Positions 5,089 to 56,618 of a DNA stretch of 64,000 nt are shown here, in pieces. This stretch comes from Ignavibacteriales bacterium (GTDB lineage: Bacteria; Bacteroidota; Ignavibacteria; UBA10030; UBA6906). The number at the start of each line of letters is the position of its first letter. Positions within the stretch are counted from its first letter, which is position 1. The translations under genes were made by a program, and so were the position numbers. Below the pieces are notes generated by a model. It was not told where the DNA came from and did not search any database. It saw only the letters and a program-made list of their open reading frames with translations. The DNA is taken from positions 141,919 through 205,918 of the forward strand of contig JBBIRR010000001.1 in assembly GCA_037441705.1 (NCBI GenBank), read 5' to 3'.

Positions 5089-7413
5089 CTACCTTGCATT
5101 GAACTTCGCTTTGAGATCCTCGAGCGTAAAATGTTTTTCCGGCGGCTTCTCGTGCTTCGCTTCCGGTACGCTTTCCGGCTTTTGCTCCTGCTTCTTTTTC
5201 GCGGGCTTCGCACCCTTTTCTTTTTTGGTCGGCTTCTCCTTGCGCGGCCGTGGGGGCGCATTCGGCGACTTCATCGTCAGGCTAATGCGCTTCAATGTCG
5301 CGTTCACCTCGAGCACCCGCACCTTGACGATCTGCCCGACCTTCACCACTTTCTTCGGATCGGCAACGTACTTGTCTGCAAGCTGTGAGACGTGCACGAG
5401 TCCGTCCTGATGCACGCCGATATCAACGAAGGCTCCGAAGTTGGCAACGTTCGTCACGACGCCCTCAAGCTCCATTCCCGGTTTCAGGTCGGCAATGTCT
5501 TTTACATCTTCCTTGAATTTTGGGGAGACAAACTCCGCGCGCGGGTCCCGTCCGGGCTTCAGCAACTCGTTGATGATGTCGCGAACCGTAGGCTCGCCGG
5601 CCGTTTCCGTGACGTAGCGTTTGATGTCGAGCGCCTGCAGCTTGTCGGCAACCTCGGGCACCCTGTCCAGCGTCACACCAAGGTCCTGCAGGATTCGTTC
5701 GGCGATGTGGTAACTTTCGGGGTGAACTGCCGAATTATCGAGAGGATTATCGCCGTTGCGGATGCGGAGAAATCCCGCGGCCTGTTCGAATGCCTTCGGC
5801 CCGAACTGCGGCACGTTCATCAACTCCTGCCGGTTGCGGAAGGGACCGTGATCTTCACGATACTTCACGATGTTGCGTGCGCTGCCCTTGTTCAATCCCG
5901 ACACGTACTTCAGCAACTCGACCGAAGCCAGATTCAGGTCAACGCCGACGTAGTTCACGCAGCTTTCGACCGTCTCTCCCAACTTCTTCTTGAGCAGCTT
6001 CTGATCCACATCGTGCTGGTATTGCCCGACGCCGATGGATTTGGGATCAATCTTGACAAGCTCGGCAAGGGGATCCTGCAGGCGTCGCGCGATGCTGATG
6101 GCGCCGCGAATGGTGAGATCGAGTTTGGGAAACTCTTGAATCGCGACGTGGCTTGCCGAGTACACCGACGCGCCCGCCTCACTCACCAACACTTTGATCG
6201 GCGGCTTCTCCAACTCCTTGATCACCTCGCCGATGAACTCGTCGGTTTCGCGCCCGGCCGTACCGTTGCCGATGGCGATGAGTTCCACATTGTGCTTCAC
6301 AATCAAATCGCGTATCACCTGCCCTGCCTGCAGGCGCTGCGCCTCGGAATGATGCGGGTAGATGGTCGCATCCTCGAGGAATTTGCCCGTTTCGCTCACG
6401 ACGGCGACCTTGCAGCCGGTGCGCAAGCCGGGATCAATCCCCATCGTGGGCTTCATGCCGGCAGGGCTGGAGAGCAACAGCGCACGCAAATTCTCCTCGA
6501 ATGTTTTGATGGATTCCCGATCGGCATATTCCTTTTTCTCCACCCGCACATCGTTCTCTAACGAGGGCCTCATGAGACGTTCGAAGGCGTCCTTGAGCAT
6601 CGCTTGATAGAACGCGGCCACCGCCGGTGCCTGCGTGTGAAGCTCCTGTTGCTCGAGGTAGCGCAGCGCCGCGGCTTCATCGAACTGCAAGCTCACGGTC
6701 AGCACGCCTTCGTGTTCGCCGCGCAGCAGTGCCAGCATGTTGTGGGCGTGGATATCCCGCACGCGCACTTTGTACTCGCGGTACATCTCGAACTTCGTCG
6801 TTCCCGGAGGAAAGTCATCCTTCACCTTTGAAACAAAGAAGCCCTCTTTCATCAGGTACTGCCGCAGATGCGCGCGGAGATGCGCTTTCTCCGAGACTTC
6901 CTCTGCGAGGATGTCGGATGCGCCTGCAAGTGCCTCCGCCGCTGTAGGAACACCTTTTTCTGGGTTGATGTATTTTGCGGCTTCTTCCTCCAGCGACGCC
7001 GCGGGAGATTCAGGAACGTTCAGGGATTGGATGAATGCCGCGAGAGGTTCGAGGCCTTTTTCTCGCGCCTCGGTTGCGCGCGTCCGTTTCTTCGGCTTGA
7101 AGGGAAGGTACAGATCTTCGAGTGTCGTCTTGTCCAACGTCGCCTCGATCGCTGCGCGAAGCGCGTCGGTCAGCTTCCCCTGTGCTTCGATCGCGCTGAG
7201 AACAGTCTGCTTGCGCTGTTCGAGTTCGGTGAGATAGGCAAATCGGTCGAAGAGCTTGCGCAATCGCGTTTCGTCCATCCCGCCCGTTCGCTCTTTGCGA
7301 TACCGGGCGATGAACGGCACCGTGGCACCGTCGGCGTGGAGGGCAAGCGCATTCTGAACATAGTGAAGTTTGAGGGACAGCTCGCGGGCGAGGCGTTCGG
7401 GGATGTTAAGCAT
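5089..7413 (-). CDS. tex: Transcription accessory protein Tex (S1 RNA-binding domain protein)
   Basis: Conserved N-terminus after MLNIPERLARELSLK...VPFIARYRKE. YqgF/RuvC-like and HhH regions are present. A C-terminal S1 domain (GMELEGVVTNVANFGAFVDIG) is followed by a Lys-rich tail. Start set at ATG 7413; the ORF-track extension to 7680 is not Tex-like. Confidence 0.85.
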   Translation of the reverse strand: MLNIPERLARELSLKLHYVQNALALHADGATVPFIARYRKERTGGMDETRLRKLFDRFAYLTELEQRKQTVLSAIEAQGKLTDALRAAIEATLDKTTLEDLYLPFKPKKRTRATEAREKGLEPLAAFIQSLNVPESPAASLEEEAAKYINPEKGVPTAAEALAGASDILAEEVSEKAHLRAHLRQYLMKEGFFVSKVKDDFPPGTTKFEMYREYKVRVRDIHAHNMLALLRGEHEGVLTVSLQFDEAAALRYLEQQELHTQAPAVAAFYQAMLKDAFERLMRPSLENDVRVEKKEYADRESIKTFEENLRALLLSSPAGMKPTMGIDPGLRTGCKVAVVSETGKFLEDATIYPHHSEAQRLQAGQVIRDLIVKHNVELIAIGNGTAGRETDEFIGEVIKELEKPPIKVLVSEAGASVYSASHVAIQEFPKLDLTIRGAISIARRLQDPLAELVKIDPKSIGVGQYQHDVDQKLLKKKLGETVESCVNYVGVDLNLASVELLKYVSGLNKGSARNIVKYREDHGPFRNRQELMNVPQFGPKAFEQAAGFLRIRNGDNPLDNSAVHPESYHIAERILQDLGVTLDRVPEVADKLQALDIKRYVTETAGEPTVRDIINELLKPGRDPRAEFVSPKFKEDVKDIADLKPGMELEGVVTNVANFGAFVDIGVHQDGLVHVSQLADKYVADPKKVVKVGQIVKVRVLEVNATLKRISLTMKSPNAPPRPRKEKPTKKEKGAKPAKKKQEQKPESVPEAKHEKPPEKHFTLEDLKAKFNAR

Positions 7414-11782: not shown

Positions 11783-14173
11783 TCAGTTCACGGCTACCGG
11801 ATCGAGCTGCAACTCGGCAATCTTCAACTTCTCCGACTCCTCGGCGGAGCGGAGCGCGAGCTTTAGCACATCGCCCATCTCCTTCACGAAGTGGAATGTC
11901 ATCCCTTCGATGGCAGGCTTCGGCACTTCGTCCAGGTCGAGCTTGTTGCGCTCGGGAAGGATGACGGTCTTGATGCCTGCGCGGTGAGCGGCGATCACCT
12001 TCTCCTTCACGCCGCCGATGGGCAGCACGGCACCGCGCAGCGTGATTTCGCCCGTCATCGCAAGGTCGTTGCGCACGAGGCGGCCGGTGAGCAGCGAGGT
12101 GAGCGCCGTGAGCATGGCAACGCCCGCCGAAGGCCCATCCTTAGGAATTGCGCCCGCCGGCACGTGCACGTGAATGTCTAACTCCGAGCGGAAGTTCTCG
12201 TCAAGGCCAAGCTCCTTTGCATGCGAGGCAATGAAGCTCAGCGCCGCCTGCGCGGATTCTTTCATCACATCCCCAAGTTGACCCGTAAGCGTGAGGTTTC
12301 CCTTCCCCTTCATCTTCGTCGCTTCGATGAAGAGAATATCGCCGCCTATGGGCGTCCACGCAAGACCAACGGCGATGCCGGGACGATTGATGCGCTCGGC
12401 AACATCCGGGAAAAACTTCTGTTGACCCAAGTACTTCGTAAGATTGTCTTTCTTGATCGTTGCTTTCTGGATCTCTCCTTCTGCCACATCTCTGGCAACG
12501 CCGCGGCAAATGCTCGCAATCTGCCGCTCGAGGTTGCGTACGCCCGCCTCTCGTGTGTAACCGGAAATGATGTGCCGGATCGCCTCGTCGTCAATCTCCA
12601 CCTGCTCGGATTGCAAACCGTGTTCGCGCAACTGCTTCGGCAGCAGGAAGCGGCGCGCAATGTGCAGCTTCTCATCCTCGACGTAGCTCGGAATTTCGAT
12701 AATCTCCATTCGGTCGCGCAGCGCGGGTGGTACCGGTTCGATCATATTCGCCGTGGCGATGAACATCACCTTCGAGAGATCGAAAGGAATCTCGAGGTAG
12801 TGATCGCTGAAGGTGGAGTTTTGCTCAGGGTCGAGAACCTCCAGCAGCGCCGCAGCCGGGTCGCCGCGAAAATCGGCGCCGACTTTGTCAATCTCGTCGA
12901 GCATGAAGACGGGATTGTTGGAGCCGGCTTTGCGCATGCCCTGGATGATGCGCCCGGGCAGCGCGCCGATGTACGTGCGCCGGTGCCCGCGGATCTCCGC
13001 TTCGTCATGCACGCCGCCGAGCGAGATGCGGACGAACTTCCTGCCGAGCGCGTTGGCGATGGAACGCCCCAGCGACGTCTTGCCGACGCCGGGAGGCCCG
13101 ACAAACACCATGATGGGACCGCGCATGTCGTTCTTCAGCTTGCGAACGGCAAGATATTCCAGGATTCGCTTCTTCACTTTATCGAGGCCGTAATGATCTT
13201 GCTCGAGAACCTCTCGCGCCTTTTTGATATCGAGATTGTCCTCGGTGCTGACGCTCCACGGTAAGTCGAGGATCCAGTCGAGATACGTTCGGCTGACGGT
13301 GTATTCGGCCGACGCCTGGTTCATCTGCGAGAGACGCTTCAGTTCCTTCTCGGCAACCTTGAGCGCTTCTTCGGGAAGTTTGGCCGCTTCGATACGCTTG
13401 CGCAGTTCGTTCAACTCAAGGTTCTCGTCGTCTTCGCCCAACTCCCTCTTGATGGCTTTCATCTGCTCGCGCAGGTAGTACTCACGCTGCGTCTTGTTGA
13501 TGCCATCCTGGACCTCCGATTGAATCTTACTGCCCAGCTCCAACTTCTGAACGAGTTTGGTCAGCACAACGGTCACCTGTTCCAGCTTCTTCCTGAGGTC
13601 GAATGATTCCAGAACCTGCTGTTTCTCCTCGACCGAAACCGGAACGAGAGACGTCGCAAGGTCGGCCACCGCCGACGGTTCGTCGGTATTCAGGATGATG
13701 GTCAGGTGTTCTTCCGTAAGGTTCGGAGACAGCTCCACCGCTCTCTTGAAGAGATTCTTGATGGTCGTGGTCATCGCCTCGATCTCGATGCCGGTCTCCG
13801 TCGTTTCATCCACCGTGCGAACGACCGCTTTGATGTACGGATCACTGTGAAGGATGGAAAGGAGCTGCACCCGTTCCAGACCCTGTGTCAGAACGCTCCG
13901 GGTTCCATCCGGCAGCGTGAATTGTTTCAACACTTTTGCCAGCGTGCCCACCCAATAGATGTCCTTTTCCGTCGGATGTTCGATGCTGCCGTCGGTTTGT
14001 GCCACAACAACAATAAGGCCCTCTTCCTTGAGCGATTCATCGATCACCCGTATGCTGCTCTCTCGTCCGATGGAGAGGGGCATCATCTGACGTGGGAAAA
14101 ACACGGAGTTGCGCAATGGCAGCACCGGTAATGCCTGGGGAACTTTCGCTTTCTTCATCTTTCGACCTTTCAT
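11783..14173 (-). CDS. lon: ATP-dependent protease La (Lon)
   Basis: Lon N-domain ([13 protein letters not shown]). AAA+ Walker [10 protein letters not shown]. Catalytic serine in [18 protein letters not shown]. The alternative start at 14158 (MKKAK) cannot be excluded. Confidence 0.9.
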
Positions 14174-18227: not shown

Positions 18228-18866
18228 CTAAATCTCTCCGCGAAGCGACTTGCTGATCACTTCCGCTTTGGAGTTGACGTGGAGCTTCTTGTAGATGTTC
18301 TTGATGTGAAAGCGGATGGTGTCAATCGAAATGTTCATTCTGTCGGCGAGCATCTTGTAGCTCAGTCCGTCCACGAGACCGATGACGATTTCTTTTTCTT
18401 TGGGTGTGAGGACGGATTCAGGAGTTCTTTGCTCGACGGTGGATGGGGTGCTGAAATGTTCCATCACCTTGCGCGCGATTTCGGGTGACATCACCGAGCC
18501 GCCGGCACGTACTGTTTCAATCGCCTTCTTGATTTCGCCCAGGGGGGTGTTTTTCAGGAGATACCCGGATGCGCCGGCACGCAGTGAATCGAAGATCTTC
18601 TGCCAATCATTGTACACCGTCAGCATGATGATGTCGACATCGGGATGCTGTTCTTTGATGAGCCGCATGCCGTCGATTCCCGACATGCCCGGCAAGCCGA
18701 TGTCGCTGAGAATCACATCAGGAAACTCGGTCTGTCTCGCTTTCGCAAGAAACTCCTCGACCGATTCCGCCGCGATCTCACACAAAACATCCTTCTGGTG
18801 ACTCAGATACTTCTGAATCCCCAGCCGAATGTCCTTATCATCTTCAACGATGCCGACGGTAATCAT
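18228..18866 (-). CDS. NarL/FixJ (LuxR-family HTH) response regulator, orphan
   Basis: REC domain (IVEDDKDIRLG...DVILSDIGLPGMSG...LTVY) with phospho-acceptor Asp, and a C-terminal LuxR HTH (LTPKEKEIVIGLVDGLSYKMLADRMNISIDTIRFHIKNIYKKL). ATG 18866 preferred over the TTG at 18881. Confidence 0.8.
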   Translation of the reverse strand: MITVGIVEDDKDIRLGIQKYLSHQKDVLCEIAAESVEEFLAKARQTEFPDVILSDIGLPGMSGIDGMRLIKEQHPDVDIIMLTVYNDWQKIFDSLRAGASGYLLKNTPLGEIKKAIETVRAGGSVMSPEIARKVMEHFSTPSTVEQRTPESVLTPKEKEIVIGLVDGLSYKMLADRMNISIDTIRFHIKNIYKKLHVNSKAEVISKSLRGEI

Positions 18867-18981
18867 GGGGCAATAAGCCAAGAAGCCTGCACAAGGTGAA
18901 CCACATATTCATGTGGGGACACTGAGGCACTGCATTCTCAACCGAGGGGACTGCTTGATCGCCTCTCGACCCAAAAACAGA

Positions 18982-19127
18982 ACGGAGGCTGACCAAAAAG
19001 TAGTATTACGTCATTCTGAGCCTCGTTTCTCAGAGGCGAAGAATCCAGAACCGAGCCATTTACTGGATTCTTCACTCCGCTTCGCTACGTTCAGAATGAC
19101 AATGGTTACTTTTTGTACAGCCTCCGT
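18982..19127. repeat. Nested inverted-repeat element abutting tRNA-Pro
   Basis: Outer imperfect 37-bp inverted arms (18982-19018 vs 19091-19127, about 31/38 match). Inner perfect 11-bp inverted repeat GAAGAATCCAG/CTGGATTCTTC (19038-19048, 19063-19073). Additional small hairpin TCTGAG..CTCAGA. Confidence 0.6.
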
Positions 19128-19133
19128 CGCCTG

Positions 19134-19207
19134 TCGGAGCGGCGGGATTTGAACCCACGACCCCTTGCACCCCAAGCAAGTGCGCTACCGGGCTGCGCCA
19201 CGCTCCG
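19134..19207 (-). tRNA. tRNA-Pro (anticodon GGG)
   Basis: Hand-folded cloverleaf: acceptor CGGAGCG/CGCTCCG, D-stem GCGC/GCGC, anticodon stem CTTGC/GCAAG with loop TTGGGGT, T-arm GTGGG-TTCAAAT-CCCGC, discriminator A. CCA is not encoded. Confidence 0.8.
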
Positions 19208-19283
19208 AAGTTTCAAACTGCATCCCCAAGATACGAAACGCTGCCAACGAGTGCAAGCACACGGCTGATTTCGTTCGTTATGG

Positions 19284-21341
19284 CTAACGGCTCGGCTCTA
19301 CCGCCTTGCGCCCTCCTTCAAGCGGTCCGAAGAAGTTTCCCGTCTGAAGAAACAGCGTGAGCGTTCGAATACTCCAGTTGTAGTAGTTGTTCTCCAGAGG
19401 AAGAGTCGTTGCGACGTTGATGCGATAGGCGGCATCGGCAAATGCCTGGTACGCGGGCCCCGCCGCCATCGCCGCGGCACCGAACGGGCCGATGAAGATG
19501 CTCGTCGGCTCGCTGCGCACCGGCTTGCCGTCGAGGTAATACCCGTTGGCAATATTCGCCGCCCCGATGGACGATGCGAAGCGAACGATTTTCTCGCAGA
19601 ACTGCCGCGCGTCTTCGTTGCCGTACCACAGATAGTCCAGCGCGATGCGCCACGGCGTGCGCGCTGCATCCCAATAGTAGTAATAGCTCTGCGCGCGTTC
19701 GGGCGCAGGCGAGCCGTCCGCGCGACACCAGTCGGGCACCAGACCCGTTTCGGGGTGTGCGCATTTCTTGAGAATCTCATAGCATCGAGCAATCACTTTG
19801 CGCCACCCGGCGTTTCCCGTCGCCGCCTCGAAGGCGCGGTAGTACGCGGGAGCGAAGTAGGACGGATTGAGCATGTGCGAGCCGCCCCAATCGCCGTCGC
19901 CGGGCTTGAGAACGAACGTGTTCTTTTCGACTTCATGTTCCCAGATGCGATTGATGAGAAGCACTGCTTCGTGTTTGTAGTTGATGGCGCCGTCACTGCA
20001 CCACTGCCGGTCGGCGAGCAGCAGTGCGAATGCGGCATCCTCATCGGCATCCGTTGCGGCGCCTCCTTCGAGCACCTCGCAGGTGCTGCCGATGTGCCAT
20101 TCCATCAGCCCGCGCTCATTCATGAACTTCTTGTAATACAACCAGAGATCATCGAAGAGCGGACGGTCGTTGAAGTTCACGGCAAGCAGCATCCCATAGC
20201 CGATGCCCTCGGACGTCGTCGAGCTCATGTCATCGAACAGAACGCGACGAAGTCCGCACGCGCTATCGCCTGTCACATACGCACTCTTCCAACTTTCGTA
20301 CGACCGCTGCGCGTCAACATGGTTCCGGTATTTGCTCATGATGCCGAACGGGTATGCTGCATTCTGCGGAAAGGGAAACGTCACGCAGCCGCCGGCGTTC
20401 TTCGTTGACAGGATGGTGCCACTCGTGCCCACGATCAGGCCAACGACAGAATCGGCCATCGCAACGCCGCGCAAATCCTGTTCGGTCCCACTCGGTCGGC
20501 TCACCCACGTGAAACCACCGTCGGTCGAGCGGAGGATGGTTCCGCGTGACCCCACAACCGTCGCGTCGTGCAACGAAGAGGTCGCCACGTCCCAAAGATC
20601 GTGCGTCGTTCCCGATCGTACAGCAGTCCAGCTCACGCCTCCGTTTTCGGTCCGCAAGATGGTTCCTTTATCTCCGACGGCAAATCCATGTCTGTTTGTG
20701 GCAAAACGCATGCGGTAGAGCATCCCCTCCGATCCCTCGGCCACACGCGTCCACGATTCACCTGCATTCGTGGTCCGCAGGATGATGCCGTTCGAACCGC
20801 AAGCCAGAAAGGTCATCGCTTCAAGGCACTGGACGCCGCGCAAGTCGTTGTTAAACCCGCTCGTACTTTCGGTCCATGTCGTTCCTCCATCCGTCGTTCG
20901 AAGAACAACCCCGCCGTATCCTACGGCAAGGCCCGTCGTTGCCGTGCAGAATGAGACGTCGTACAACGACTTCGCCGTTACACGCTGAACCGAGGTCCAG
21001 GTTTTTCCTCCATCCGTCGTTCGAAGAATGACGCCGTTCCATCCAACAACATAACCAACAAAAGGAGACACGAAGGCAACACCGCTGAGCCAGGTGCCCG
21101 TTCCGCTTTGCTGCGCGCTCCACGTTGTTCCGCCATCCGCGCTGAAGAGAATCGTACCGCGTGCGCCGACGGCGACAGCGGTTCTTCTGTCGACAAAAGT
21201 AACGTCAGAGAGCGGAACGGTGACGCCGCTGGTTTGCTGCACCCACTGGGCGTGCAGGCGAGGACTGGCCGGCAGAAGAGTGAGAAGCCAGCAGGCGATT
21301 AAACGGAGAACAGGTTTCAGGCAAGATGTTGTGCGTAGCAT
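19284..21341 (-). CDS. BNR/Asp-box beta-propeller fused to a glycoside hydrolase family 8 (GH8) catalytic domain
   Basis: Signal peptide. Six SxDGGxTW Asp-box repeats (SADGGTTW, TTDGGKTW, TTDGGTTW, TENGGVSW, STDGGFTW...). The GH8 signature ATDADEDAAFALLLADRQW and catalytic-Glu motif TSEGIGYGML are present. Start overlaps the upstream GT4 stop (TGATG). Confidence 0.8.
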   Translation of the reverse strand: MLRTTSCLKPVLRLIACWLLTLLPASPRLHAQWVQQTSGVTVPLSDVTFVDRRTAVAVGARGTILFSADGGTTWSAQQSGTGTWLSGVAFVSPFVGYVVGWNGVILRTTDGGKTWTSVQRVTAKSLYDVSFCTATTGLAVGYGGVVLRTTDGGTTWTESTSGFNNDLRGVQCLEAMTFLACGSNGIILRTTNAGESWTRVAEGSEGMLYRMRFATNRHGFAVGDKGTILRTENGGVSWTAVRSGTTHDLWDVATSSLHDATVVGSRGTILRSTDGGFTWVSRPSGTEQDLRGVAMADSVVGLIVGTSGTILSTKNAGGCVTFPFPQNAAYPFGIMSKYRNHVDAQRSYESWKSAYVTGDSACGLRRVLFDDMSSTTSEGIGYGMLLAVNFNDRPLFDDLWLYYKKFMNERGLMEWHIGSTCEVLEGGAATDADEDAAFALLLADRQWCSDGAINYKHEAVLLINRIWEHEVEKNTFVLKPGDGDWGGSHMLNPSYFAPAYYRAFEAATGNAGWRKVIARCYEILKKCAHPETGLVPDWCRADGSPAPERAQSYYYYWDAARTPWRIALDYLWYGNEDARQFCEKIVRFASSIGAANIANGYYLDGKPVRSEPTSIFIGPFGAAAMAAGPAYQAFADAAYRINVATTLPLENNYYNWSIRTLTLFLQTGNFFGPLEGGRKAVEPSR

Positions 21342-37515: not shown

Positions 37516-40191
37516 TCATCGAACGAGAACAAGCTTACGTGTGGCAACGAAACTGCCTGCTCGGAGACGATAGTAGTATACACCGCTGGCAAGCCCGTCA
37601 CCATGAAAAACCACTTGATGATACCCGGCTTCCTGATGCTGCGCCACGAGGCGTGCCACCTCACGGCCGAGGCCATCATAGACAACCAGCGAAACGACGC
37701 TTGCGCGCGGCAGACCGAACCGAATGAGCGTTGTCGGGTTTGCCGGATTGGGATAGTTTTGCAGCAGTTCGAATGCCTTCGGTGTTTCTGCAGCCTCGGC
37801 CACGTCAGTCAGATGAACACGAAAGTTCCGCACCTCACCGAACTGGCCCCATCCTGCTTCGTTCCTCGCTCGCACCCTCCACCAATAACTTCTCGAGTTG
37901 GCAAGTTGCCGCGCAGTCGTTGTCGTATCAACCAGCAAGGAGTCGACAAGCGGCGAAGAGAAGAGCGAGTCTGTGGCCAGTTCAAGCCAGTAGCGCACAA
38001 CGTCCGGCCGACTTTGACGCCAGATGAGACGGACCGTGTCCGTACCGATCAGCGCATTGGGCGCAGGCGAAACCAGCGCCACCGGCTCGGGCAGCTGAAC
38101 GAGCGTCCGGAAACTCCAGCGATCCGACCACGGACTTGTCCCACCGGCGTTCGTTGCATTAACCCTCCAGTAGTACCACTGGCCGCGCTGCAATCCTGCA
38201 ACCGTGCGAGCTGTGTCGCTCAACGTGGAGTCATCGACCTCGAGCGCCGTGAACAGCGAATCGGCCGCCACCTGAAGGCGATACCGATCAGCCTCCGCGC
38301 TTCGATGCCAGACGACAGGAAGCGTCGTCGGGTGACCGACAGAGAGATTGGCCGGTGAAAGCAATTGCGGCGCAAGGGGCGCTGCAAGGACGGTCATGAA
38401 ATTCCACCACGGACTGAATTCTCCCCACCCCATATCGTTCCTCGCACGTGCGCGCCAGTAGTAGCGCGTGTTGTTCGCCAGTTGGCTCACAGTCGTGGTC
38501 GTGTCGGTGAGAGATGTATCTCGCACGGCAGGCTGCGCGCTCGTGTCGGTTGAAAGCTCAAACCAGTATCCGCTTACGTTCATTGGTCCATCACTCTCCC
38601 ACCATAGTTTTTTTGTTGGTGAAATGACGGACGTTTGGTCCGCGCCGCGATGCCACATGAACGTCACGCTCGTCGGCTGGTTCAGAGCATTGTTGGGAGG
38701 GCTGAGCAAAGCAACCTGCATCGGAACGCCAAGCGTCTTGAAGCTCCGCCATGGAGAAAACGCGCTGGTGCCCGCGCCGTTCCTCGCATTCACCTTCCAA
38801 TAGTACCACGTCAACGGCTGAAGATTCTCCAGTTGATAGGTCGTGTCGGTGATCAGCGAATCATTGACAACGAGTTGGATGAACGACGTGTCGAGTGCAA
38901 CCAGCACGCCATAGCTCGAGGCGGTGGACGACGTGCGCCAGAGAAGTGCTGTTGACGGTGGGTGACCGACGGACCCATTCAGCGGCGACACAAGCTCCGG
39001 GGCACTCGGCGGCAGAATCGGAACGCTGTCCAGCGGATTGAAGAAGTTCCCCGTCTGCAGGAACAGGGTGAGCGTTCTGAGGCTCCAGTTGTAGTAGTTG
39101 CCGTTCACAAAGGGCGGGACGGTTGCGACGTTATCGTCGTAGGCCGAATCGCAAAATGCCTGATACGCCGGAGTGGTCCCCATCGAGCCGGCGGCAAACG
39201 GCCCGACGAACACGTTGATGTGCTGCTGCCCGATGGGAGTGCCGTCAAGGTAGTATCCCTCGCGGATATTGACTGAACCAATCCCGCGTGCGAAGTCGGA
39301 TATTTTTTGCAGGAACACTCTCGCCCGGTTGTCGCCAAACCACACGTAGTCAACGGCAATGCGCCAGGGCGTGCGGGTCGCGTCGTAGTAATAATAGTAG
39401 GCGAACCCGGGTGCCGGCTGCCCGCTCGCCTGACACCAGTCGGGCACGAGACCGGTGTTGACATGCGCGGCGCGCTGGAGAATCTCATAACACTTCGTCA
39501 CAACGCTATCCCATCCCGGATTGCCCGTGACGGCACGAAAGGCTCGATAGTACGCAGGAGCAAAGTAGGATGGATTGAGAACGTGCGACCCGCCCCAGTA
39601 ATCGCCGGGCTTCAGCACGTACGTGTTGGGTTCAACTTCGTACTGGTAGATGCGATTGATTTGGGTGATTGCATGCTGAAGATAATTGATCGCGCCGGTA
39701 CTGCCCCACTGCTTATGTGCCAGCAGCAAAGCAAAGGCAGCATCTTCATCGGCGTCGGTTGCTCCGCCATCACCCAGAATCTGACCGCAATTACTGCCGA
39801 TCCACCAGTGCATCATGCCGCGCGGGTCCATGTGCGCCATGTAGTAACGCCACAGATCATCGAACAACGCGCGATCGTTGTAGTTCACCGACAGCAGCAT
39901 GCCGTAGGCAATCCCCTCCGAGTACGTCGAACTCATATCATTGAAGAGCACGCGGCGGTACCCGCATGCCCCGCTGGTGGTCACATAGTTGTTTTTCCAG
40001 GCAAGGTACGACGATTCGGCAGGAACATGGCTTCGCGCGGTGGGCATGATGCCGTACGGGTACGTGGTGTTCTGGGGAAAGGGGTATCGCGCCTGCGCGT
40101 GTGCCGGCTCTACAGCGATGAAGCAGAGAAGCACAGCCTTGCATGCCGCAAGCAGTATTACGTCCGACGCGCGCGTAGGTTCACCTCTCAT
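37516..40191 (-). CDS. Secreted GH8 glycoside hydrolase with about five FN3-like repeats and T9SS (Por) C-terminal sorting domain
   Basis: Signal peptide. GH8 signature ATDADEDAAFALLLAHKQW and TYSEGIAYGML. Repeated P.L.SP.N...YYW.V.A.N..G.S.FS modules. C-terminus LLQNYPNPANPTTLIRFGLP...VYDGLGREV...SGVYYYRLRAGSFVATRKLVLVR matches the Por_Secre_tail consensus. Confidence 0.85.
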   Translation of the reverse strand: MRGEPTRASDVILLAACKAVLLCFIAVEPAHAQARYPFPQNTTYPYGIMPTARSHVPAESSYLAWKNNYVTTSGACGYRRVLFNDMSSTYSEGIAYGMLLSVNYNDRALFDDLWRYYMAHMDPRGMMHWWIGSNCGQILGDGGATDADEDAAFALLLAHKQWGSTGAINYLQHAITQINRIYQYEVEPNTYVLKPGDYWGGSHVLNPSYFAPAYYRAFRAVTGNPGWDSVVTKCYEILQRAAHVNTGLVPDWCQASGQPAPGFAYYYYYDATRTPWRIAVDYVWFGDNRARVFLQKISDFARGIGSVNIREGYYLDGTPIGQQHINVFVGPFAAGSMGTTPAYQAFCDSAYDDNVATVPPFVNGNYYNWSLRTLTLFLQTGNFFNPLDSVPILPPSAPELVSPLNGSVGHPPSTALLWRTSSTASSYGVLVALDTSFIQLVVNDSLITDTTYQLENLQPLTWYYWKVNARNGAGTSAFSPWRSFKTLGVPMQVALLSPPNNALNQPTSVTFMWHRGADQTSVISPTKKLWWESDGPMNVSGYWFELSTDTSAQPAVRDTSLTDTTTTVSQLANNTRYYWRARARNDMGWGEFSPWWNFMTVLAAPLAPQLLSPANLSVGHPTTLPVVWHRSAEADRYRLQVAADSLFTALEVDDSTLSDTARTVAGLQRGQWYYWRVNATNAGGTSPWSDRWSFRTLVQLPEPVALVSPAPNALIGTDTVRLIWRQSRPDVVRYWLELATDSLFSSPLVDSLLVDTTTTARQLANSRSYWWRVRARNEAGWGQFGEVRNFRVHLTDVAEAAETPKAFELLQNYPNPANPTTLIRFGLPRASVVSLVVYDGLGREVARLVAQHQEAGYHQVVFHGDGLASGVYYYRLRAGSFVATRKLVLVR

Positions 40192-41689: not shown

Positions 41690-43777
41690 ATGCGTCACAG
41701 GACAACCAAGCCTCCCCTCAAAATTGCACTGACATACGCAATCGTGGCCAGCCTCTACATCATGATCTCCGACAAGCTCGCCGGCACACTCGCCTCCACG
41801 ACCGAAGCGCTCACCGGGATCTCCCAAATCAAAGGACTGATGTTTGTCGCCCTCACCAGCCTGATGCTCTACCTGATGGTCCGGCGACTTACCAACGCCC
41901 AGCACCGCGTTCAAGAGGAATTGGTGAAGAGCAACGAACGCCTCGCGCTTATCACCTCAACGACGCCGGTCTTTCTTTTTGAGATTGATCGAACAGGAAC
42001 CATCCTTCACGCAACGAAGCCGTTCCAAGGAATACCGACGACGGATATCCTCAGCACGAACTTTTTCTCGTTCCTCCCCGAGCATCGGCGCGGAGCGCTC
42101 GCCGCGGTTATCGAAGCGACGTGCGCCACAGCGACAGCGCAGTCGTTCGAGTACACGACACGGACAGACGGACAGGAGCCGAGAACCTTTTCTCTGACGA
42201 TTGCCCCACTTCATCACAGCAACAACTCGCCTCACCTGCTGGTGACCGTCCACGACATCACCGACCAGAAACAGAAAGAGGATGCACTCCGACAATCGCA
42301 TCAACGCTTCGAGTTAGTTTCCCGCGCCTCCAACGACACCATCTGGGATTGGGATATCGTCTCGGGCAAGCTCTGGGTCAGCGACGCGTTCTTTCAAAAA
42401 TACGGCTATCCCCGAACCGCATCGCTGACGCTCAGTGATTGGGATTCACACATCCATCCGGAGGATCGCGAGCGCGTGGTGAAAAGCCGGCTCACCGCGG
42501 TGCAGCAGAGAGCAACTTCGTGGGAGGAAGAATTCCGCTTCGTGCATGCGAACGGATCAACCAGTTACGTTGTGGATCGCGGGTTTCTCGTGTTCGACGA
42601 TCAGGGCACGCCGGTGCGGATGATCTGCTCCATGGTGGATGTGACAACGTTGAAGCTCGCAGAGCTGGACCAGCGGTACTTAGCGGAAGAGCGGCAAAAG
42701 CTGCTGCATCAATTGCGCCTGCAGTTCGAGCGCATGCCGATCGGGTACGTCCTGGCCGACAGAAACTTCCGCATCGTCGAGTGGAATCCTTCCTGTGAGA
42801 AAATCTTCGGCTACACACGCGCGGAGGTGATCGGGCGGTCACCGTTCGATGTTGTGATCCCCTCCGTGCTCAAGCCCTTCATTCATGAGTTCATCGAACG
42901 GCTCAAGACGGGAAAAGAGACGCTGACCGCCATCAACGAAAATCTCACGAAAGACGGACGTACGATCCTGTGCGAATGGTTCGACACGCCGCTGTTTGAC
43001 GAGTACGGTAACTACACCGGCATGATCGCGATGGTGCAGGATATTACCGAGCGTCGGCATGCAGAGGAGGAGCTGAAGAAATCGAACATTCAGTTACGCA
43101 ACCTTTCGGCCTACTTGCAGACGGTTCGCGAGCAGGAACGTAAACACATCGCGCGCGAGATACACGATGAACTGGGCCAGGAACTGACGGCGCTGAAGAT
43201 GCAGGCAGCACTGATGCAGAAAGCGATCGCCAAGCTGGATGCAGCCGCGCCGAAGTCCGAACTTCTGGACCTCACGCACTCGCTCACCGTCATGGCCGAC
43301 ACGGCGATCAAGACCGTTCGCCGCATCGCGACAGAGCTGCGCCCCGATGTGCTGGACAAAGTGGGGCTGATCGACGCGCTGAAATGGCAGGCGCAGGAGT
43401 TCGAGAAGCGAACCGGCGTCCAGTGCATCTTTCGCTCGCGCGTGGACGAGTGGGACTTCCCCGACGACGTGGCAACGGCGCTCTTTCGGATTTTTCAGGA
43501 GGCACTCACCAACGTCTCGCGCCACGCTCGCGCAACGCGCGTTGCCGCCGAGCTTTCGCTGCGCGAGGATTGGGTGGACTTCCGCGTGGAAGATAACGGC
43601 CGAGGCATCAGCAAAGAACAGATCGAGAACACGTCGTCGCTCGGACTGATCGGCCTCGTCGAGCGCGCAAAACTCCTGGGCGGAACCGCCACGATTGTCG
43701 GCGTGCCTGGCGCGGGCACCACCATCAACGTGCATATTCCTCTCCCATCATCGAACGCGGAGAACGGACAGTCATGA
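41690..43777 (+). CDS. Membrane PAS-domain sensor histidine kinase (HisKA_3 / NarX-type)
   Basis: N-terminal TM region and three PAS-like modules. H-box HIAREIHDELGQELTALKMQ (HisKA_3 type). HATPase_c G-boxes (DNGRGI; GLIGLVERAKLLGG). Confidence 0.8.
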   Translation: MRHRTTKPPLKIALTYAIVASLYIMISDKLAGTLASTTEALTGISQIKGLMFVALTSLMLYLMVRRLTNAQHRVQEELVKSNERLALITSTTPVFLFEIDRTGTILHATKPFQGIPTTDILSTNFFSFLPEHRRGALAAVIEATCATATAQSFEYTTRTDGQEPRTFSLTIAPLHHSNNSPHLLVTVHDITDQKQKEDALRQSHQRFELVSRASNDTIWDWDIVSGKLWVSDAFFQKYGYPRTASLTLSDWDSHIHPEDRERVVKSRLTAVQQRATSWEEEFRFVHANGSTSYVVDRGFLVFDDQGTPVRMICSMVDVTTLKLAELDQRYLAEERQKLLHQLRLQFERMPIGYVLADRNFRIVEWNPSCEKIFGYTRAEVIGRSPFDVVIPSVLKPFIHEFIERLKTGKETLTAINENLTKDGRTILCEWFDTPLFDEYGNYTGMIAMVQDITERRHAEEELKKSNIQLRNLSAYLQTVREQERKHIAREIHDELGQELTALKMQAALMQKAIAKLDAAAPKSELLDLTHSLTVMADTAIKTVRRIATELRPDVLDKVGLIDALKWQAQEFEKRTGVQCIFRSRVDEWDFPDDVATALFRIFQEALTNVSRHARATRVAAELSLREDWVDFRVEDNGRGISKEQIENTSSLGLIGLVERAKLLGGTATIVGVPGAGTTINVHIPLPSSNAENGQS

Positions 43778-44406
43778 TCAAAATCCTCATCGCCGACGAC
43801 CATCCGATGGTTCGGGAGGGGCTGAAGAAGACGCTGAGCGAGGAACCGGATATCCACCTGCTGGGCGAGGCACGCAACGCACAGGAAACGCGCGCGCTGG
43901 TTGCCGAACATGACGCCGATGTGCTGGTGCTGGATATCTCGATGCCCGGCACAAGCGGCCTTTCGCTCCTGCAGGACGTCCTGCGCATGAAGAACGACCT
44001 GCGTGTGCTGATCCTGAGCATGCACCCCGAGGAACGCTTTGCCATCCGCGCACTCAAGGAAGGCGCCTCCGGTTATCTCACGAAAGAATCCGCGCCGGAG
44101 GAACTTGCGCGGGCAATCCGCAAAATTGCCGCCGGCCGACGCTACATCAGTCCCACACTTGCCGAGAAGCTCGTCGAAGAGCTTCAGTCGGATAGCACCG
44201 CTCTTCCTCATGAACTCCTCTCCGAGCGCGAGTACGAAATCTTCCTCATGATTGCCGGCGGCAAAACCGTAAGCGCTATCGCGGAGGAACTCTCGTTGAG
44301 CGTTGCGACCGTGAGCACACATCGCCGACGCATCCTCGAGAAAATGAACCTTTCGAACAACGCAGAAATCGTGCAATACGCTTACGCCAACAAGCTGATG
44401 CAGTAA
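43774..44406 (+). CDS. NarL/LuxR-family response regulator
   Basis: REC (ILIADDHPMVREG...VLVLDISMPG) plus LuxR HTH (LSEREYEIFLMIAGGKTVSAIAEELSLSVATVSTHRRRILEKM). ATGA overlap with the kinase. Confidence 0.85.
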   Translation: MIKILIADDHPMVREGLKKTLSEEPDIHLLGEARNAQETRALVAEHDADVLVLDISMPGTSGLSLLQDVLRMKNDLRVLILSMHPEERFAIRALKEGASGYLTKESAPEELARAIRKIAAGRRYISPTLAEKLVEELQSDSTALPHELLSEREYEIFLMIAGGKTVSAIAEELSLSVATVSTHRRRILEKMNLSNNAEIVQYAYANKLMQ

Positions 44407-44862: not shown

Positions 44863-46065
44863 GTGAAAGACGCACGCATTCTGATTGTGGAAAACGAAGC
44901 ACCTCATGCCATGGACCTGAAGTACCGCGTCGAAACGCTCGGTTACCATGTGCTGGGGATTGTGGACACCGGAGAGAAAGCCGTTGATTTTGTCAAACGC
45001 TATCGCCCCGATTTGATTCTCATGGATGTCGGGCTGAATAGCGCAATGGATGGGGTTGCGACCGCGGCGGAAATCTGGAAGAAGACCAGGACGCCGTTCG
45101 TGTACATCACCGCGTATTCGGAAGAATCCATCGCGACCCGAACGGATGCCGTCGAGCCTTACGGTCTTGTCGGCAAGCCGTTTCATGATCGGGAGCTGCA
45201 GACGGCCATCGAAGTGGCGCTCTACAAGGCCGCGGTCGAAGCGTCGGTGCGCCGACGCGAACGGGAGCTTGAGACGATTCTCAACAGCATGCGCGACGGC
45301 GCGATCATCGTTGATCGGCACTCGCGTATTCGCTACATGAATCCCATTGCAGAACTCCTGACGGGTTGGAAAGCGAGCGAAGCAAACGGGCGCGAGCTTA
45401 GCAGCGTGCTGCGTCCGGCAGGGACGGACACGAAACAGGAGTTGTCCATCTGTCTCGGCATCGTCCTTCGTGAAGGCGGCGGCTTGACCGTCTCCAACAT
45501 CGAGTTGCTGACAAAGGATGATGCGCCCATCGTTGTGGATGCGGCGATCGCCGTGGTGCAGAATGCAACGGGCGAACTCGAAGGAGCGGCAGTGCTCCTC
45601 CAGGACGCTTCACCGCGCCTGCGTGCCGAGCGGGAGTTGGAGATGCAGCGCGCGTTCTTCCGCCAATTGTTCGAGAAGTCACCCCTGGCCATTGCCATTC
45701 TCGATCGCAACGATCGCTTCGTCGACATCAACCCGGCGTTCACCGAACTGTTTCAGTACACGCCGTCGGATGTCCGGGGGAAATGTATTGCTGATCTGCT
45801 TGTCCCGCCGGAATCCGCGAGCGAGTGGATGAACTACTCCCGTATGGTTCATGACAAAGAACGAGTGACCGCCACAGGATTACGTCGGCGGAAAGACGGA
45901 GGCATCGTTCCAGTTTCCATACATGCGATCCCCATTATGCTTTCGGACGACTCGATCGGCGTGTATGCAATTTACGGGAATGCCTCAGGGCAGGACCTCG
46001 ACGCGGCCTCGCCCTCTCGCGTTCTTACGCAGACATCACCAGAAACCATGAACGAAAGCGTATGA
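44863..46065 (+). CDS. Response-regulator receiver + two PAS domains (no recognised output domain)
   Basis: GTG start 5 nt after AAGGAGG. REC (ILIVENEAPHAMDL...LILMDVGL). PAS segments include QRAFFRQLFEKSPLAIAILDRNDRFVDINPAFTELFQY. ATGA overlap with the following kinase. Confidence 0.75.
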   Translation: MKDARILIVENEAPHAMDLKYRVETLGYHVLGIVDTGEKAVDFVKRYRPDLILMDVGLNSAMDGVATAAEIWKKTRTPFVYITAYSEESIATRTDAVEPYGLVGKPFHDRELQTAIEVALYKAAVEASVRRRERELETILNSMRDGAIIVDRHSRIRYMNPIAELLTGWKASEANGRELSSVLRPAGTDTKQELSICLGIVLREGGGLTVSNIELLTKDDAPIVVDAAIAVVQNATGELEGAAVLLQDASPRLRAERELEMQRAFFRQLFEKSPLAIAILDRNDRFVDINPAFTELFQYTPSDVRGKCIADLLVPPESASEWMNYSRMVHDKERVTATGLRRRKDGGIVPVSIHAIPIMLSDDSIGVYAIYGNASGQDLDAASPSRVLTQTSPETMNESV

Positions 46066-48950: not shown

Positions 48951-48959
48951 GCAGGTGAC

Positions 48960-50144
48960 ATGATTGCGGTCGATGAACATAAGAGGGCACAGGAGTCGGT
49001 TGCGTCGTCGTCCATCGTCGTGGTGGATGACGAGCCGGCGATTCTTGCGTCGCTCACAAGTTTGCTGCGCCGTCAACGCTTTGCCGTCCACGGATTTGAG
49101 GCAGGAACGGAAGCCCTCGAGTTTCTTCGCAACAATCCGGTGAGTCTGATCCTCAGCGACATGAAGATGCCGGAGATGAACGGGTGCGAGGTACTTCAGA
49201 AAGCTGTGCAGCTCAATCCGGACTCTGTACGCATCCTGATGAGCGGGCATGAGAGTAAAGAGGAGATTCTGGCTGCGATCAGCGACGGCATCGCCCAATT
49301 TTACATCATCAAACCGTGGGACGACGAGGCGCTGCGCGAGACCATGGGTGAAGCCATCCGCCTGCAGCAGGAGCTGAAGGCCCTGCGTCTCAAGGAAGTG
49401 CTGAAGTCGCTGAACGCGCTTCCGTCACCCTCGCGATTTCAGACGGGGCTCTGGCAGCTTCTGGCCAAGCCCGAGAAACCCATCCATGAACTCGCCGAAG
49501 AGATCGAGCGCAGTCCTGCGCTTGTAGCGAAGCTCCTGCGCGTCGCGAACTCGGTTTTCTTCGGGGCACGGCAGAAAGTCACAACCGTCCTCGATGCCCT
49601 TCGCCTCGTCGGGACGCAGTACGTCGTCTCCATGGCCATTTCGATCGAATCGCTGAACGCCGCGACGGGGGGGATGTCTGCCGACACTGCCGCTCGTGTC
49701 GAGAAGATTTGGGAGCGCAGCCTGCGGAAGACACATCTGGCAAAGCAGATTGCCTCGCGCTGGCAGAACTTCCAGCAGATGCATGCCCTGACGATCGCGT
49801 CGTTGCTGCAGGACATTGGCATAATCATCCTGATGTGTTATCGTCCCGAGGAGTATCGTCGGTATCAATCTCTGCTGGACACCAAGGGGGCGACGCCGTA
49901 CGCACTGCAGCGCGAGGTCTTCGGCATTACGCACGAGAAGTTGGGCGAAGCAGTGCTTGAGTACTGGAACTTTCCCAAAGAAATCAGCGCCGCTGTGGGA
50001 CGACACCATGGTCCGACGGAGAACGATACGATCGCTGTAATCCTTCAACTCACCAACATCCTCGACGACGAAAATGATGCGCGTCCCTACGACGAATCCA
50101 TCCTGCCGTTGGTCGGGGAGTGGAGCAATATCACCGGAACATAA
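48960..50144 (+). CDS. Response-regulator receiver + HDOD domain protein
   Basis: REC (VVVDDEPAILASL...LILSDMKMPEMNG). The C-terminal half matches my recollection of HDOD (PIHELAEEIERSPALVAKLLRVANSVFFGARQKVTTVLDALRLVGTQYV). Confidence 0.65.
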   Translation: MIAVDEHKRAQESVASSSIVVVDDEPAILASLTSLLRRQRFAVHGFEAGTEALEFLRNNPVSLILSDMKMPEMNGCEVLQKAVQLNPDSVRILMSGHESKEEILAAISDGIAQFYIIKPWDDEALRETMGEAIRLQQELKALRLKEVLKSLNALPSPSRFQTGLWQLLAKPEKPIHELAEEIERSPALVAKLLRVANSVFFGARQKVTTVLDALRLVGTQYVVSMAISIESLNAATGGMSADTAARVEKIWERSLRKTHLAKQIASRWQNFQQMHALTIASLLQDIGIIILMCYRPEEYRRYQSLLDTKGATPYALQREVFGITHEKLGEAVLEYWNFPKEISAAVGRHHGPTENDTIAVILQLTNILDDENDARPYDESILPLVGEWSNITGT

Positions 50145-50169
50145 TTCGTGAACTAATGATGATTGCCCT

Positions 50170-56063: not shown

Positions 56064-56618
56064 ATGCAGACTCCGACCATCATCTTCACATACGATGACT
56101 ACCTGACTCTTCCCAACGACGGGAAGAGATATGAGATTATTGACGGAGATTTGCACATCACCCCCGCACCCATCCCCGAGCACCAGCTTGTCCTTGTTTA
56201 TTTGACAGAAATCTTGCTGGCCTACCTTCGCAGCCATAAATGGGGAAAGTTGTTCGTTGCACCTACCGATGTGGTGTTCTCCATGACGGAAGTGGCACAA
56301 CCTGACATCGCAGTCGTTGCAAGAGAGCGTGACCACATCATCACAAAAAGGAATATCATTGCAGCTCCCGATCTCATCGTCGAGATTCTTTCGGAGGCAA
56401 CGGAGAAAACCGACCGGACAACAAAGAAGGCGATGTACGAACGGCATGGCGTGAAAGAATACTGGATCGTTGATCCGTCCGATCGCTCCGTGGAGATCTT
56501 CGAACTCGTGGGCGGAGCGTACGCGCCGGGCACACGCTTTGCATCAACGGAAGAAGTACACTCCCCGCTTCTGTCCGGGCTTTCGTTCCGTGTGCAGACC
56601 ATTTTCGACTTCGAGTAG
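56064..56618 (+). CDS. Uma2-family (DUF820) putative restriction-endonuclease-like protein
   Basis: YEIIDGDLHITPAPIPEHQLVL...PDIAVV...APDLIVEILS...KKAMYERHGVKEYWIVDP fits the PD-(D/E)xK-like Uma2 pattern as I recall it. Confidence 0.6.
   Translation: MQTPTIIFTYDDYLTLPNDGKRYEIIDGDLHITPAPIPEHQLVLVYLTEILLAYLRSHKWGKLFVAPTDVVFSMTEVAQPDIAVVARERDHIITKRNIIAAPDLIVEILSEATEKTDRTTKKAMYERHGVKEYWIVDPSDRSVEIFELVGGAYAPGTRFASTEEVHSPLLSGLSFRVQTIFDFE

Follow-up and report, generated by a model that had tools for sequence, protein, structure and literature searches.

This study concerns a nested inverted repeat directly 3' of a tRNA-Pro(GGG) gene in a 64,000-nucleotide stretch of DNA (the window) from an Ignavibacteriales bacterium (contig JBBIRR010000001.1, assembly GCA_037441705.1). 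Positions 18985-19125 of the window are probably (at about 0.7) a non-autonomous, multi-copy palindromic element built around a doublet of repetitive extragenic palindromic (REP) units, of the kind represented by REPINs and miniature inverted-repeat transposable elements (MITEs). It has entered the terminator of the tRNA-Pro gene and replaced the interior of its hairpin, and it probably still terminates transcription. A preliminary description of this DNA had offered three candidates for the repeat, namely a MITE-like element, an att-site scar of an island integrated at tRNA-Pro, and a structured 3' trailer or small RNA co-transcribed with the tRNA. The coordinates of the features are collected in Table 1.

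The insertion becomes visible by comparison with relatives, whose loci were reached through homologues of the GH8 protein encoded next to the tRNA. One of them, L135 (NCBI GCA_037444205.1), counts by any usual measure as conspecific with the window strain. Its blastn alignment consists of two collinear blocks, 96.7% and 97.5% identical, which abut exactly at the element; there, 138 nt of the window (18986-19123) face no more than 16 nt in L135, the sole sizeable indel across 15.8 kb. The order of GH8 gene, tRNA-Pro and regulator is kept, with the GH8 gene next to the tRNA conserved at 98%. Downstream of its tRNA, L135 reads CAGGCA-ACGGCATCAC-ACCT-GTGATGCCGT-TCTGTTTTG, a textbook 10-bp hairpin with a U-tract. 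Two further relatives, L145 and L138 (GH8 orthologues 77% and 66% identical, respectively), possess an identical tRNA followed by a ACGGCATCG...CGATGCCGT hairpin, and the ancestral stem is seen as ACGGCATC...GATGCCGT in all three. The short hairpin is taken as ancestral because L135, L145 and L138 all carry it at this site. The window retains the stem base ACGG/CCGT and the U-tract but has 138-141 nt in place of the hairpin interior. Between filled and empty site 16-19 nt are replaced without any direct repeat, the flanks being inverted (ACGG/CCGT), and the junctions show a microhomology of 1-2 nt, G on one side and CC on the other. No intermediate forms between the long and the short version were found in these genomes, which are 97% identical. 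The alignment shows the element to be a derived, recent insertion into the tRNA-Pro terminator in the lineage of the window strain.

Additional copies were sought in a collection of 5.8 billion proteins with the open +2 frame of the element, a search aimed at open reading frames (ORFs) called by accident on other copies. An NCBI protein from a 4,762-bp contig, P0121, is identical in 46 of 46 residues (EADQKVV...MVTFCTAS), which correspond to 18985-19122; the match runs from the codon GAG (18985) and the following serine codon TCC reaches 19125. On both its N- and C-terminal side, P0121 continues with sequence unrelated to the flanks in the window. P0121 is a spurious ORF on an identical 138-nt copy of the element with other flanks, and it is the only full-length match in an exhaustive HMMER search of 1.84 billion representatives. 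Another protein matched in that search, P0123, was rejected as a further copy, being an unrelated repetitive ORF. Searches with other frames led to P0122 (NCBI, 38,341-bp contig), which ends in ...EGAVQKETIVILNPSASLRVNSAKRSEESGKWLGSGFFASEKRGSE and represents the minus-strand frame of the element with a few substitutions and nine additional codons in one of the side hairpins; its upstream sequence differs from that of the window. Both copies are known as peptides. About 30 codons before the element copy in P0122 stands RGFEPPT, which resembles a translated tRNA T-arm, and this copy may adjoin a tRNA gene as well.

Assembly breaks point in the same direction. Two Logan contigs (L002 and L001, source run SRR11582170) that carry the flanking genes end at ...GGAGGCTGTACAAAAAGTAACCATTGTCAT and ATGACGTAATACTACTTTTTGGTCAGCCTC..., respectively. 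The start of L001 and the end of L002 fall at 19014 and 19096 of the window, each exactly 30 nt (k-1) beyond 18985 and 19125. Logan contigs are derived from a de Bruijn graph with k=31 in which every 31-mer is unique (PMC12424806). In such a graph, a contig running into sequence that recurs elsewhere in the sample has to end k-1 = 30 nt inside it, as both contigs do. The palindrome itself is excluded as the cause, since its two arms share no 31-mer, and a flip-flop inversion was rejected on the same ground and because the breaks lie 30 nt from the outer boundaries and not at the inner repeat. The limits derived in this way (18985 and 19125) are also the limits of the identity with P0121 and lie within 1-2 nt of those of the indel in L135. 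This is indirect evidence for at least two copies of the element in the sample, and contig ends at k-1 inside a sequence could serve as a general signature for spotting repeats in Logan data. Scans with arm patterns were less telling. A contig scan of genomes with ACGGAGGCTGNNCAAAAAGTA gave six solitary matches in unrelated taxa, where about four are expected by chance, none of them with a partner arm or unit; the pattern contained 2-3 target bases, could thus match no insertion site but this one, and is uninformative on copy number. Viral-contig scans with arm patterns gave matches at chance level only.

The inverted-repeat structure at 18982-19127 is real and well beyond chance, and all features given in the preliminary description are present. 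Its outer arms (18982-19002 and 19107-19127, 21 nt each) are 90% complementary. They enclose a perfect 10-bp stem, GTCATTCTGA / TCAGAATGAC (19010-19019 / 19091-19100), the perfect 11-bp inner stem GAAGAATCCAG / CTGGATTCTTC (19038-19048 / 19063-19073) that had been noted before, and the small third hairpin, GCCTC-N8-GAGGC at 19020-19037. What had been described as a 37-bp imperfect outer repeat corresponds to the 21-nt arm together with the 10-bp stem, the two being split by 6-7 nt without complementarity. Likewise, the repeat had been delimited as 18982-19127, of which the inserted and repeated unit is 18985-19125; the terminal ACGG/CCGT belongs to the older terminator. The RNA minimum free energy of 18982-19127 is -77.3 kcal/mol for the minus and -70.8 kcal/mol for the plus strand, compared with -41 and -36 for shuffled sequences (z about -9.5 for either strand; none of 200 shuffles folded as well), and z is -8.3 when the element is folded with DNA parameters. 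The terminal arms AGGCTGnnCAAAAAGTA at both ends match in 15 of 17 positions. Between them lie two (C/T)GTC-tagged hairpin units in inverted orientation, which form the core GTCATTCTGAGC...GCGAAGAATCCA, and each inner half reads GTC-ATTCT-GA-GC-[insert]-GC-GA-AGAAT-CCA.

Elements of the same architecture occur elsewhere. A scan of JGI metagenomes for GCTGNNCAAAAAGTA-N5-8-GTCATTCTGA matched four contigs, two of which (L141 and L144) carry complete elements with arm, 6-8 nt, tagged unit, spacer, inverted unit, 6-8 nt and arm, while L142 and L143 hold half an element. The arm AGGCTGnnCAAAAAGTA stands 6-8 nt from GTCATTCTGA in L141, L144 and L142/L143. Both complete elements are intergenic and follow closely on a gene, and neither contig stretch has a predicted tRNA. 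When aligned in both orientations, the elements of the window, L141 and L144 give one consensus structure, with compensatory changes in the tail of the inner stem (CAG/CTG, TT/AA, TCTC/GAGA) and likewise in the outermost, target-derived pairs. In all three, the sequence just outside the arms is self-complementary and differs from copy to copy (ACGG/CCGT, TCTCCTTCCGC/GCGGAAGGAGA and TTAACA/TGTTAA), which suggests a preference for pre-existing hairpins as targets.

Some observations on these loci stand by themselves. The element of L141 (about 12440-12660), enclosed by TCTCCTTCCGC / GCGGAAGGAGA, has similar small hairpins on either side, GCGGAAGGA-N5-TCCTTCCGC and GCGGAAGGAG-N5-CCTCCCGCC, which gives the impression that the insertion duplicated or split a terminator hairpin. 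In addition, GGAGGCTGTCCAAAAAGTA recurs identically in several Bacteroidota-like genomes, in L131 (a Prolixibacteraceae metagenome-assembled genome) at 5876-5925 and also in L134 and L142/L143. In L131, an ordinary terminator hairpin (AGGCTGTCCAA...TTGGACAGCCT plus T-tract) has this sequence as its 5' half. The arms of the element may derive from a terminator sequence like that of L131, or the likeness may be due to chance.

A MITE-like element, the first of the earlier candidates, fits these results well: the element is missing at the site in the conspecific and two further relatives, P0121 and P0122 represent other copies, the Logan contigs break inside it and related elements occur in the JGI contigs. 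It is, however, closer to REP doublets than to a classical MITE with terminal inverted repeats and target-site duplication. In the classical form, the element would be an internally deleted insertion sequence (IS) derivative moved by a DDE transposase that binds the 17-nt terminal repeats AGGCTGnnCAAAAAGTA, with the REP-like units as passengers. The size of 141 nt, the multi-copy evidence and the conservation of the arms among elements from unrelated contigs (window, L141, L144, L142/L143) would suit such an origin. We nevertheless regard it as unlikely. A direct target-site duplication is lacking: the element is flanked by inverted ACGG/CCGT, and the interior of the target has gone. Conservation is equal in the arms and the inner units, and where arm-like sequences occur singly, in genomes or viral contigs, they are no more frequent than chance predicts. 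No IS or transposase was found in the window or beside any arm-bearing locus examined, the arm-like matches of L134 and L143 included.

It was also considered whether the hairpin is nothing but the tRNA-Pro terminator, enlarged in place by local duplication or inversion and immobile. The repeat sits exactly at the terminator position and has its stem base and U-tract in common with the relatives, and the outer arms alone form a terminator-like hairpin if the inner part is removed on paper. Against this, 138 nt appear at once between 97%-identical genomes without intermediates, the identical sequence has other flanks in P0121 and a diverged copy lies elsewhere (P0122), the Logan contigs break k-1 inside the element, and the same architecture is found in unrelated contigs without a nearby tRNA. 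A purely local origin is therefore very improbable.

The third candidate, a structured 3' trailer, captured part of the situation: the element occupies the ancestral terminator position with stem base and U-tract, but as an RNA it is not conserved. Selection for an RNA role beyond termination, as a 3' trailer or small RNA made together with tRNA-Pro, would be compatible with the stable fold in the tRNA sense (-77 kcal/mol) and with the transcribed position 5-6 nt after the tRNA, and REPs in general have been proposed to act on mRNA stability, according to a paper on REP families (PMC3733652). Yet the element is absent from the same locus in the conspecific and the other relatives, both strands fold equally well, as expected of a DNA palindrome, and copies of the family lie in unrelated contexts. 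An Rfam search of 18700-19400 at E<=10, a check that the preliminary description had proposed, returned only the tRNA besides noise. Since conspecifics do without the element, a dedicated RNA function is unlikely, and we give this explanation very little credence. Other readings were discarded as well. A hammerhead-like reading of GUC...CUGA...GAA was rejected for lack of the CUGANGA core, and integron attC and dif sites because their consensus does not fit.

The picture that we favour is of an element composed of two inverted (C/T)GTC-tagged hairpin units (GTC-ATTCT-GA-GC-[loop]-GC-GA-AGAAT-CCA) that face each other across a 14-nt spacer, flanked by the 17-nt arms AGGCTGnnCAAAAAGTA. As the comparison with the three relatives shows, it inserted into the intrinsic terminator hairpin of tRNA-Pro(GGG) in place of the interior GGCATCAC-ACCT-GTGATGC, whereas the 4-bp stem base and the U-tract stayed. 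Movement could be due to an enzyme that recognises hairpins or single-stranded DNA and has its gene at another place in the genome; alternatively, the element could have been copied in by template switching from hairpin to hairpin at the microhomologies of 1-2 nt (G / CC). Such an enzyme, or template switching, would be favoured over a DDE transposase because of the palindromic single-strand fold, the conserved unpaired tag, the missing target duplication and the hairpin targets.

In the tRNA sense, UCUGUUUUUGG comes immediately after the stem base ACGGAGGCUG.../...CAGCCUCCGU, and the short terminators of the relatives have the same position and U-tract. In the predicted fold of this strand, the outer arms prolong the old stem base into an outer stem that spans 21 positions with two mismatches and comes in two parts of 10 and 9 pairs, capped by a three-way structure; the ancestral 10-bp hairpin reaches -22.6 kcal/mol. 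Judging from its geometry, the minus-strand RNA would form a very stable stem directly followed by UUCUGUUUUUGG, which would end the transcript of tRNA-Pro and the glycan operon and insulate the response-regulator gene. By this model the element should terminate at least as well as the ancestral hairpin, and it most probably now serves as the tRNA-Pro terminator. The tRNA-Pro gene has no encoded CCA, so its 3' end must be released by an endonuclease cutting upstream of the hairpin, as in the relatives.

Several points weigh against a mobile REP-doublet element. The 64-kb window contains no further copies of arm, unit or inner stem beyond chance and 22 kb of the relative contain none, and the genome is therefore not REP-rich. 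The evidence for other loci consists of the peptide flanks of P0121 and P0122 and the argument from contig breaks. The missing target-site duplication together with the deleted target interior fits no standard transposition scheme. Among the ORFs of the window there is no candidate for a mobilising enzyme. Finally, a simple terminator scan does not call the element, because of the loop limit of the scan.

The core of the REP-like units is much more widespread than the element. The canonical 25-mer GTCATTCTGAGC-GNA-GCGAAGAATC is very common in DNA from cyanobacteria and from the environment, exact matches to GTCATTCTGAGC-N-GCGAAGAATC being present in at least 120 IMG/VR contigs. It consists of a 5-bp stem, tandem G.A/A.G pairs and a GC-GNA-GC mini-hairpin with a 3-nt loop, whose GCGNAGC centre we take to be the very stable DNA mini-hairpin of Hirao and colleagues. 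Among the matches listed, the gap is GCA, GAA, GGA or GTA in 85 of 147 units, and the 5' flank of 96 canonical or variant units in viral contigs is TGTC in 86, CGTC in six, AGTC in three and GGTC in one. Also among these matches, the units lie mostly outside ORFs, without orientation bias relative to the flanking genes and in convergent (22) rather than divergent (5) intergenic regions, by a rough count based on ORFs and not on called genes. Stem variants with compensatory changes (ATCCT/AGGAT, ACCCT/AGGGT, ATACT/AGTAT and others) occur in the same loci, the unpaired GTC being kept in every case. Elsewhere the usual tail is CTC or CCC, while both units of the window end in ...AGAAT-CCA(G). Fifty doublets of units were counted among the loci examined, about ten of them within some outer palindrome, and there is no other unit in the window.

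In BLAST searches of plasmids and phages only the REP unit matched, namely in plasmids of Planktothrix and Calothrix and in a single gut phage contig, and none of the matches is annotated; the portion matching the cyanobacterial plasmid repeats is the right unit (19064-19101). Plasmid3 of Planktothrix agardhii NIES-204 (AP017994.1; L147 1340-1640) carries three tandem doublets of about 98 bp of the TGTC-tagged unit (TGTCATTCTGAGTGAAACGAAGAATCTC ... GATCCTTCA...TTCAGGATGACA). This array is unannotated and lies between hypothetical genes, and similar arrays are present on two other Planktothrix plasmids. Rfam at the gathering score detected only tRNAs in 12 unit-carrying loci, and the literature, searched by sequence strings and characteristic peptides, yielded nothing relevant. 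It is tempting to speculate, although we hold it to be rather doubtful, that the 25-nt module GTC-ATTCT-GA-GCGNAGC-GA-AGAAT-C, in which tandem G.A pairs close a d(GCGNAGC)-type mini-hairpin, represents an undescribed, horizontally spreading REP family that is near-identical in Cyanobacteria, Bacteroidota-like lineages and many virus-flagged contigs and is moved by a hairpin-swapping enzyme targeting terminator hairpins. If this were true, the filled and empty sites of the window and L135 would be the first defined transposition product for the CGTC-REP class.

The neighbourhood of the element bears on the remaining candidate, an att-site scar that would mark the glycan locus as an island integrated at tRNA-Pro. 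All neighbours are on the minus strand, in the order BNR + GH8 gene, tRNA-Pro, element and regulator. The distance of 6 nt between tRNA and repeat given in the preliminary description agrees with a measured gap of 5-6 nt. The element does adjoin a tRNA gene and a variable polysaccharide locus. Its sequence, however, does not resemble that of the tRNA; a second match to the final 16-30 nt of the tRNA gene is absent from the window at up to one mismatch per 6 nt, so that the suggested search for a 3' direct repeat came out negative; and G+C is flat across the locus. As stated before, no integrase is present among the sizeable ORFs of the window, nor does any of these contain a transposase domain. 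Comparison with L135 revealed the syntenic order of GH8 gene, tRNA and regulator, with the short hairpin in place of the element, and the variable glycan segment begins at about 25.07 kb, some 6 kb away and not at the tRNA. The reading as an island or att site is rejected because of the missing tRNA repeat, the missing integrase and transposase, the flat G+C, the conserved gene order and the distance of the variable part; its probability is close to nil.

Table 1. Features of the tRNA-Pro(GGG) region in the window.
Feature	Position	Strand	Remarks
Terminator U-tract TTCTGTTTTTGG (minus-strand reading)	18970-18981	-	Directly after stem; conserved with L135 TTCTGTTTTG after the short hairpin
ACGG, half of ancestral terminator stem base	18982-18985		Pairs with CCGT 19124-19127; target-derived except shared G 18985
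CCGT, partner half of ancestral terminator stem base	19124-19127		Comparison with relatives
Probable mobile palindromic element	18985-19125	no strand	141 nt; blastn against L135, limits of P0121 identity, Logan contig ends
Element, narrower version	18986-19123		138 nt when the junction microhomology of 1-2 nt is assigned to the target
Element termini GAGGCTG... / ...CAGCCTCC
Left outer arm AGGCTGACCAAAAAGTA, terminal inverted repeat	18986-19002	+
Right outer arm AGGCTGTACAAAAAGTA (minus-strand reading)	19107-19123	-
Left REP-like unit	19009-19047	+	CGTC tag, ATTCT-GA-GC, hairpin insert CTC-GTTTCTCA-GAG, GC-GA-AGAAT, CCA tail
Right REP-like unit, inverted	19064-19101	-	TGTC tag, ATTCTGA, AC-GTAGCGAAGCGGAGT insert including GCGAAGC, GAAGAAT, CCA tail
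Central loop/spacer between units	19049-19062		14 nt
tRNA-Pro(GGG)	19133-19207	-	ARAGORN; Rfam tRNA 62.5 bits
Receiver + GerE response regulator	18228-18866	-	116 nt downstream of element
BNR + GH8 protein	19284-21341	-	Last gene of glycosyltransferase operon

Further observations concern the surrounding genes. The regulator downstream of the element had been called an orphan LuxR-type regulator. With its receiver and GerE domains it is a response regulator and not strictly a LuxR solo, and no kinase gene adjoins it. Two GH8 paralogues on the same strand (19284-21341 and 37516-40191) flank the glycosyltransferase/ABC-transporter locus. Their 3' portions are direct repeats of 71-83% identity (19318-19389 and 39029-39100; 19897-20063 and 39602-39768), through which the glycan locus could be deleted or exchanged. 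The window and L135 cease to align inside this locus, from about 25066 onward in the window and at 1-6277 in L135, and the distal genes are methyltransferases and GT2 genes in L135 and other GT4s with a GDSL-like protein in the window. Judged from these gene contents, the difference looks like a cassette swap whose border is not at the tRNA. Just beyond the glycan locus lie a HisKA_3 kinase with PAS domains and a second receiver-GerE regulator, followed by a series of PAS, receiver, HDOD and HD-domain signalling genes (41690-44406 and 44863-51387). The sole nuclease-like genes of the window encode an RNase_T exonuclease-GIY-YIG fusion (53513-55096) and a Uma2-family putative endonuclease (56064-56618), and neither is a known REP or IS enzyme.

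The annotation of the glycan locus should not use the element as an att site, as it is not an island border. The two strains provide a clean pair of filled and empty sites within one species, in which a REP-doublet element replaced a terminator hairpin while the geometry of the terminator was preserved. This pair is a concrete example of how REP-doublet elements can be tolerated or even co-opted at the 3' ends of genes. The core module also has practical consequences, since it yields many spurious 'hypothetical proteins' (VILSEAKN... / ...DSSLRSE / ...LRMT) and breaks short-read assemblies. Identification of the enzyme that mobilises the module would address a question left by the literature on CGTC REPs.

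In type, the element is fairly ordinary bacterial selfish DNA, and we file it under the REP-doublet/MITE kind and not under any one named family. Like the terminator-bearing MITEs (Correia of Neisseria, ERIC/IRU of enterobacteria, and RUP), it is of about 100-160 bp, intergenic, bordered by terminal inverted repeats and able to form a long hairpin in the transcript, and elements of this type are able to affect termination or mRNA stability. In contrast to it, they duplicate their target (TA in the case of Correia) without replacing it, and they have no sequence relation to the window element. Neither the window nor the loci with arm matches yielded an autonomous IS that shares the terminal repeats of the element. 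In Nostoc, very small hairpin-forming mobile repeats were reportedly found by Elhai and colleagues in 2008 to be inserted within conserved palindromes or swapped inside them. These small dispersed repeats differ from the window element in sequence and belong to a different host phylum.

With REPINs (Bertels & Rainey, 2011, PLoS Genet 7:e1002132), the element shares two inverted REP units with a short spacer that form one long hairpin, its non-autonomous nature, near-identical copies at different loci and the absence of a target-site duplication. REPINs, however, bear GTAG tags and are linked to a RAYT gene that has the same REPs on both sides, whereas the window element carries (C/T)GTC tags and no RAYT (Y1/HUH transposase) was present among the ORFs of the window or at any locus examined.

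The closest comparison is with the CGTC-tagged REP superfamily (Di Nocera, De Gregorio & Rocco, 2013, BMC Genomics 14:522, PMC3733652), which includes dRS3 of Neisseria and RPE-4/-6 of Rickettsia. As described there, these REPs have an unpaired terminal tag CGTC (variants TGTC and CCTC) at one end of the palindrome, stems of 8-9 bp starting with A-T and T-A pairs, loops of 4-5 nt and short unpaired tails, mostly CCA. They are predominantly inverted dimers able to form one large stem-loop, are sited after genes, are repeated tens to thousands of times per genome in hosts that include Bacteroidetes/Chlorobi, and in this account have no known dedicated transposase; in H. neapolitanus and A. variabilis, REP dimers are nested within longer palindromes. 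Measured against this description, the window element agrees in its tags (CGTC at 19009-19012 on the left, TGTC at 19101-19098 of the minus strand on the right), in the 3-nt tail CCA of both units, in the inverted dimer with tags outward and a 14-nt spacer, in the location after gene 3' ends and in the lack of a linked transposase. The tag-outward arrangement is also seen in the dimer peptides of Additional file 3 (VIAGLDPAIH...DARVKPAHD).

Other features agree in part or differ. The stem has nine positions (ATTCTGAGC / GCGAAGAAT) and starts with A-T and T-A, but positions 6-7 are G.A/A.G and not Watson-Crick pairs, whereas the families as described have continuous stems of 8-9 bp and loops of 4-5 nt (for example CGTC-1, GTCATTCCCGCGAAAGCGGGAATCCA, inferred from the peptides of Additional file 3). 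The canonical loop of the window type is 3 nt (GNA), and both window units carry inserts of 14-15 nt, which form extra hairpins, in its place. The conserved 17-nt outer arms around the doublet are a further difference from the CGTC REPs as portrayed there, and the density, one element per 64 kb, is low by comparison. In summary, the core unit agrees with the CGTC-tagged REP superfamily, as described, in a part of its features only.

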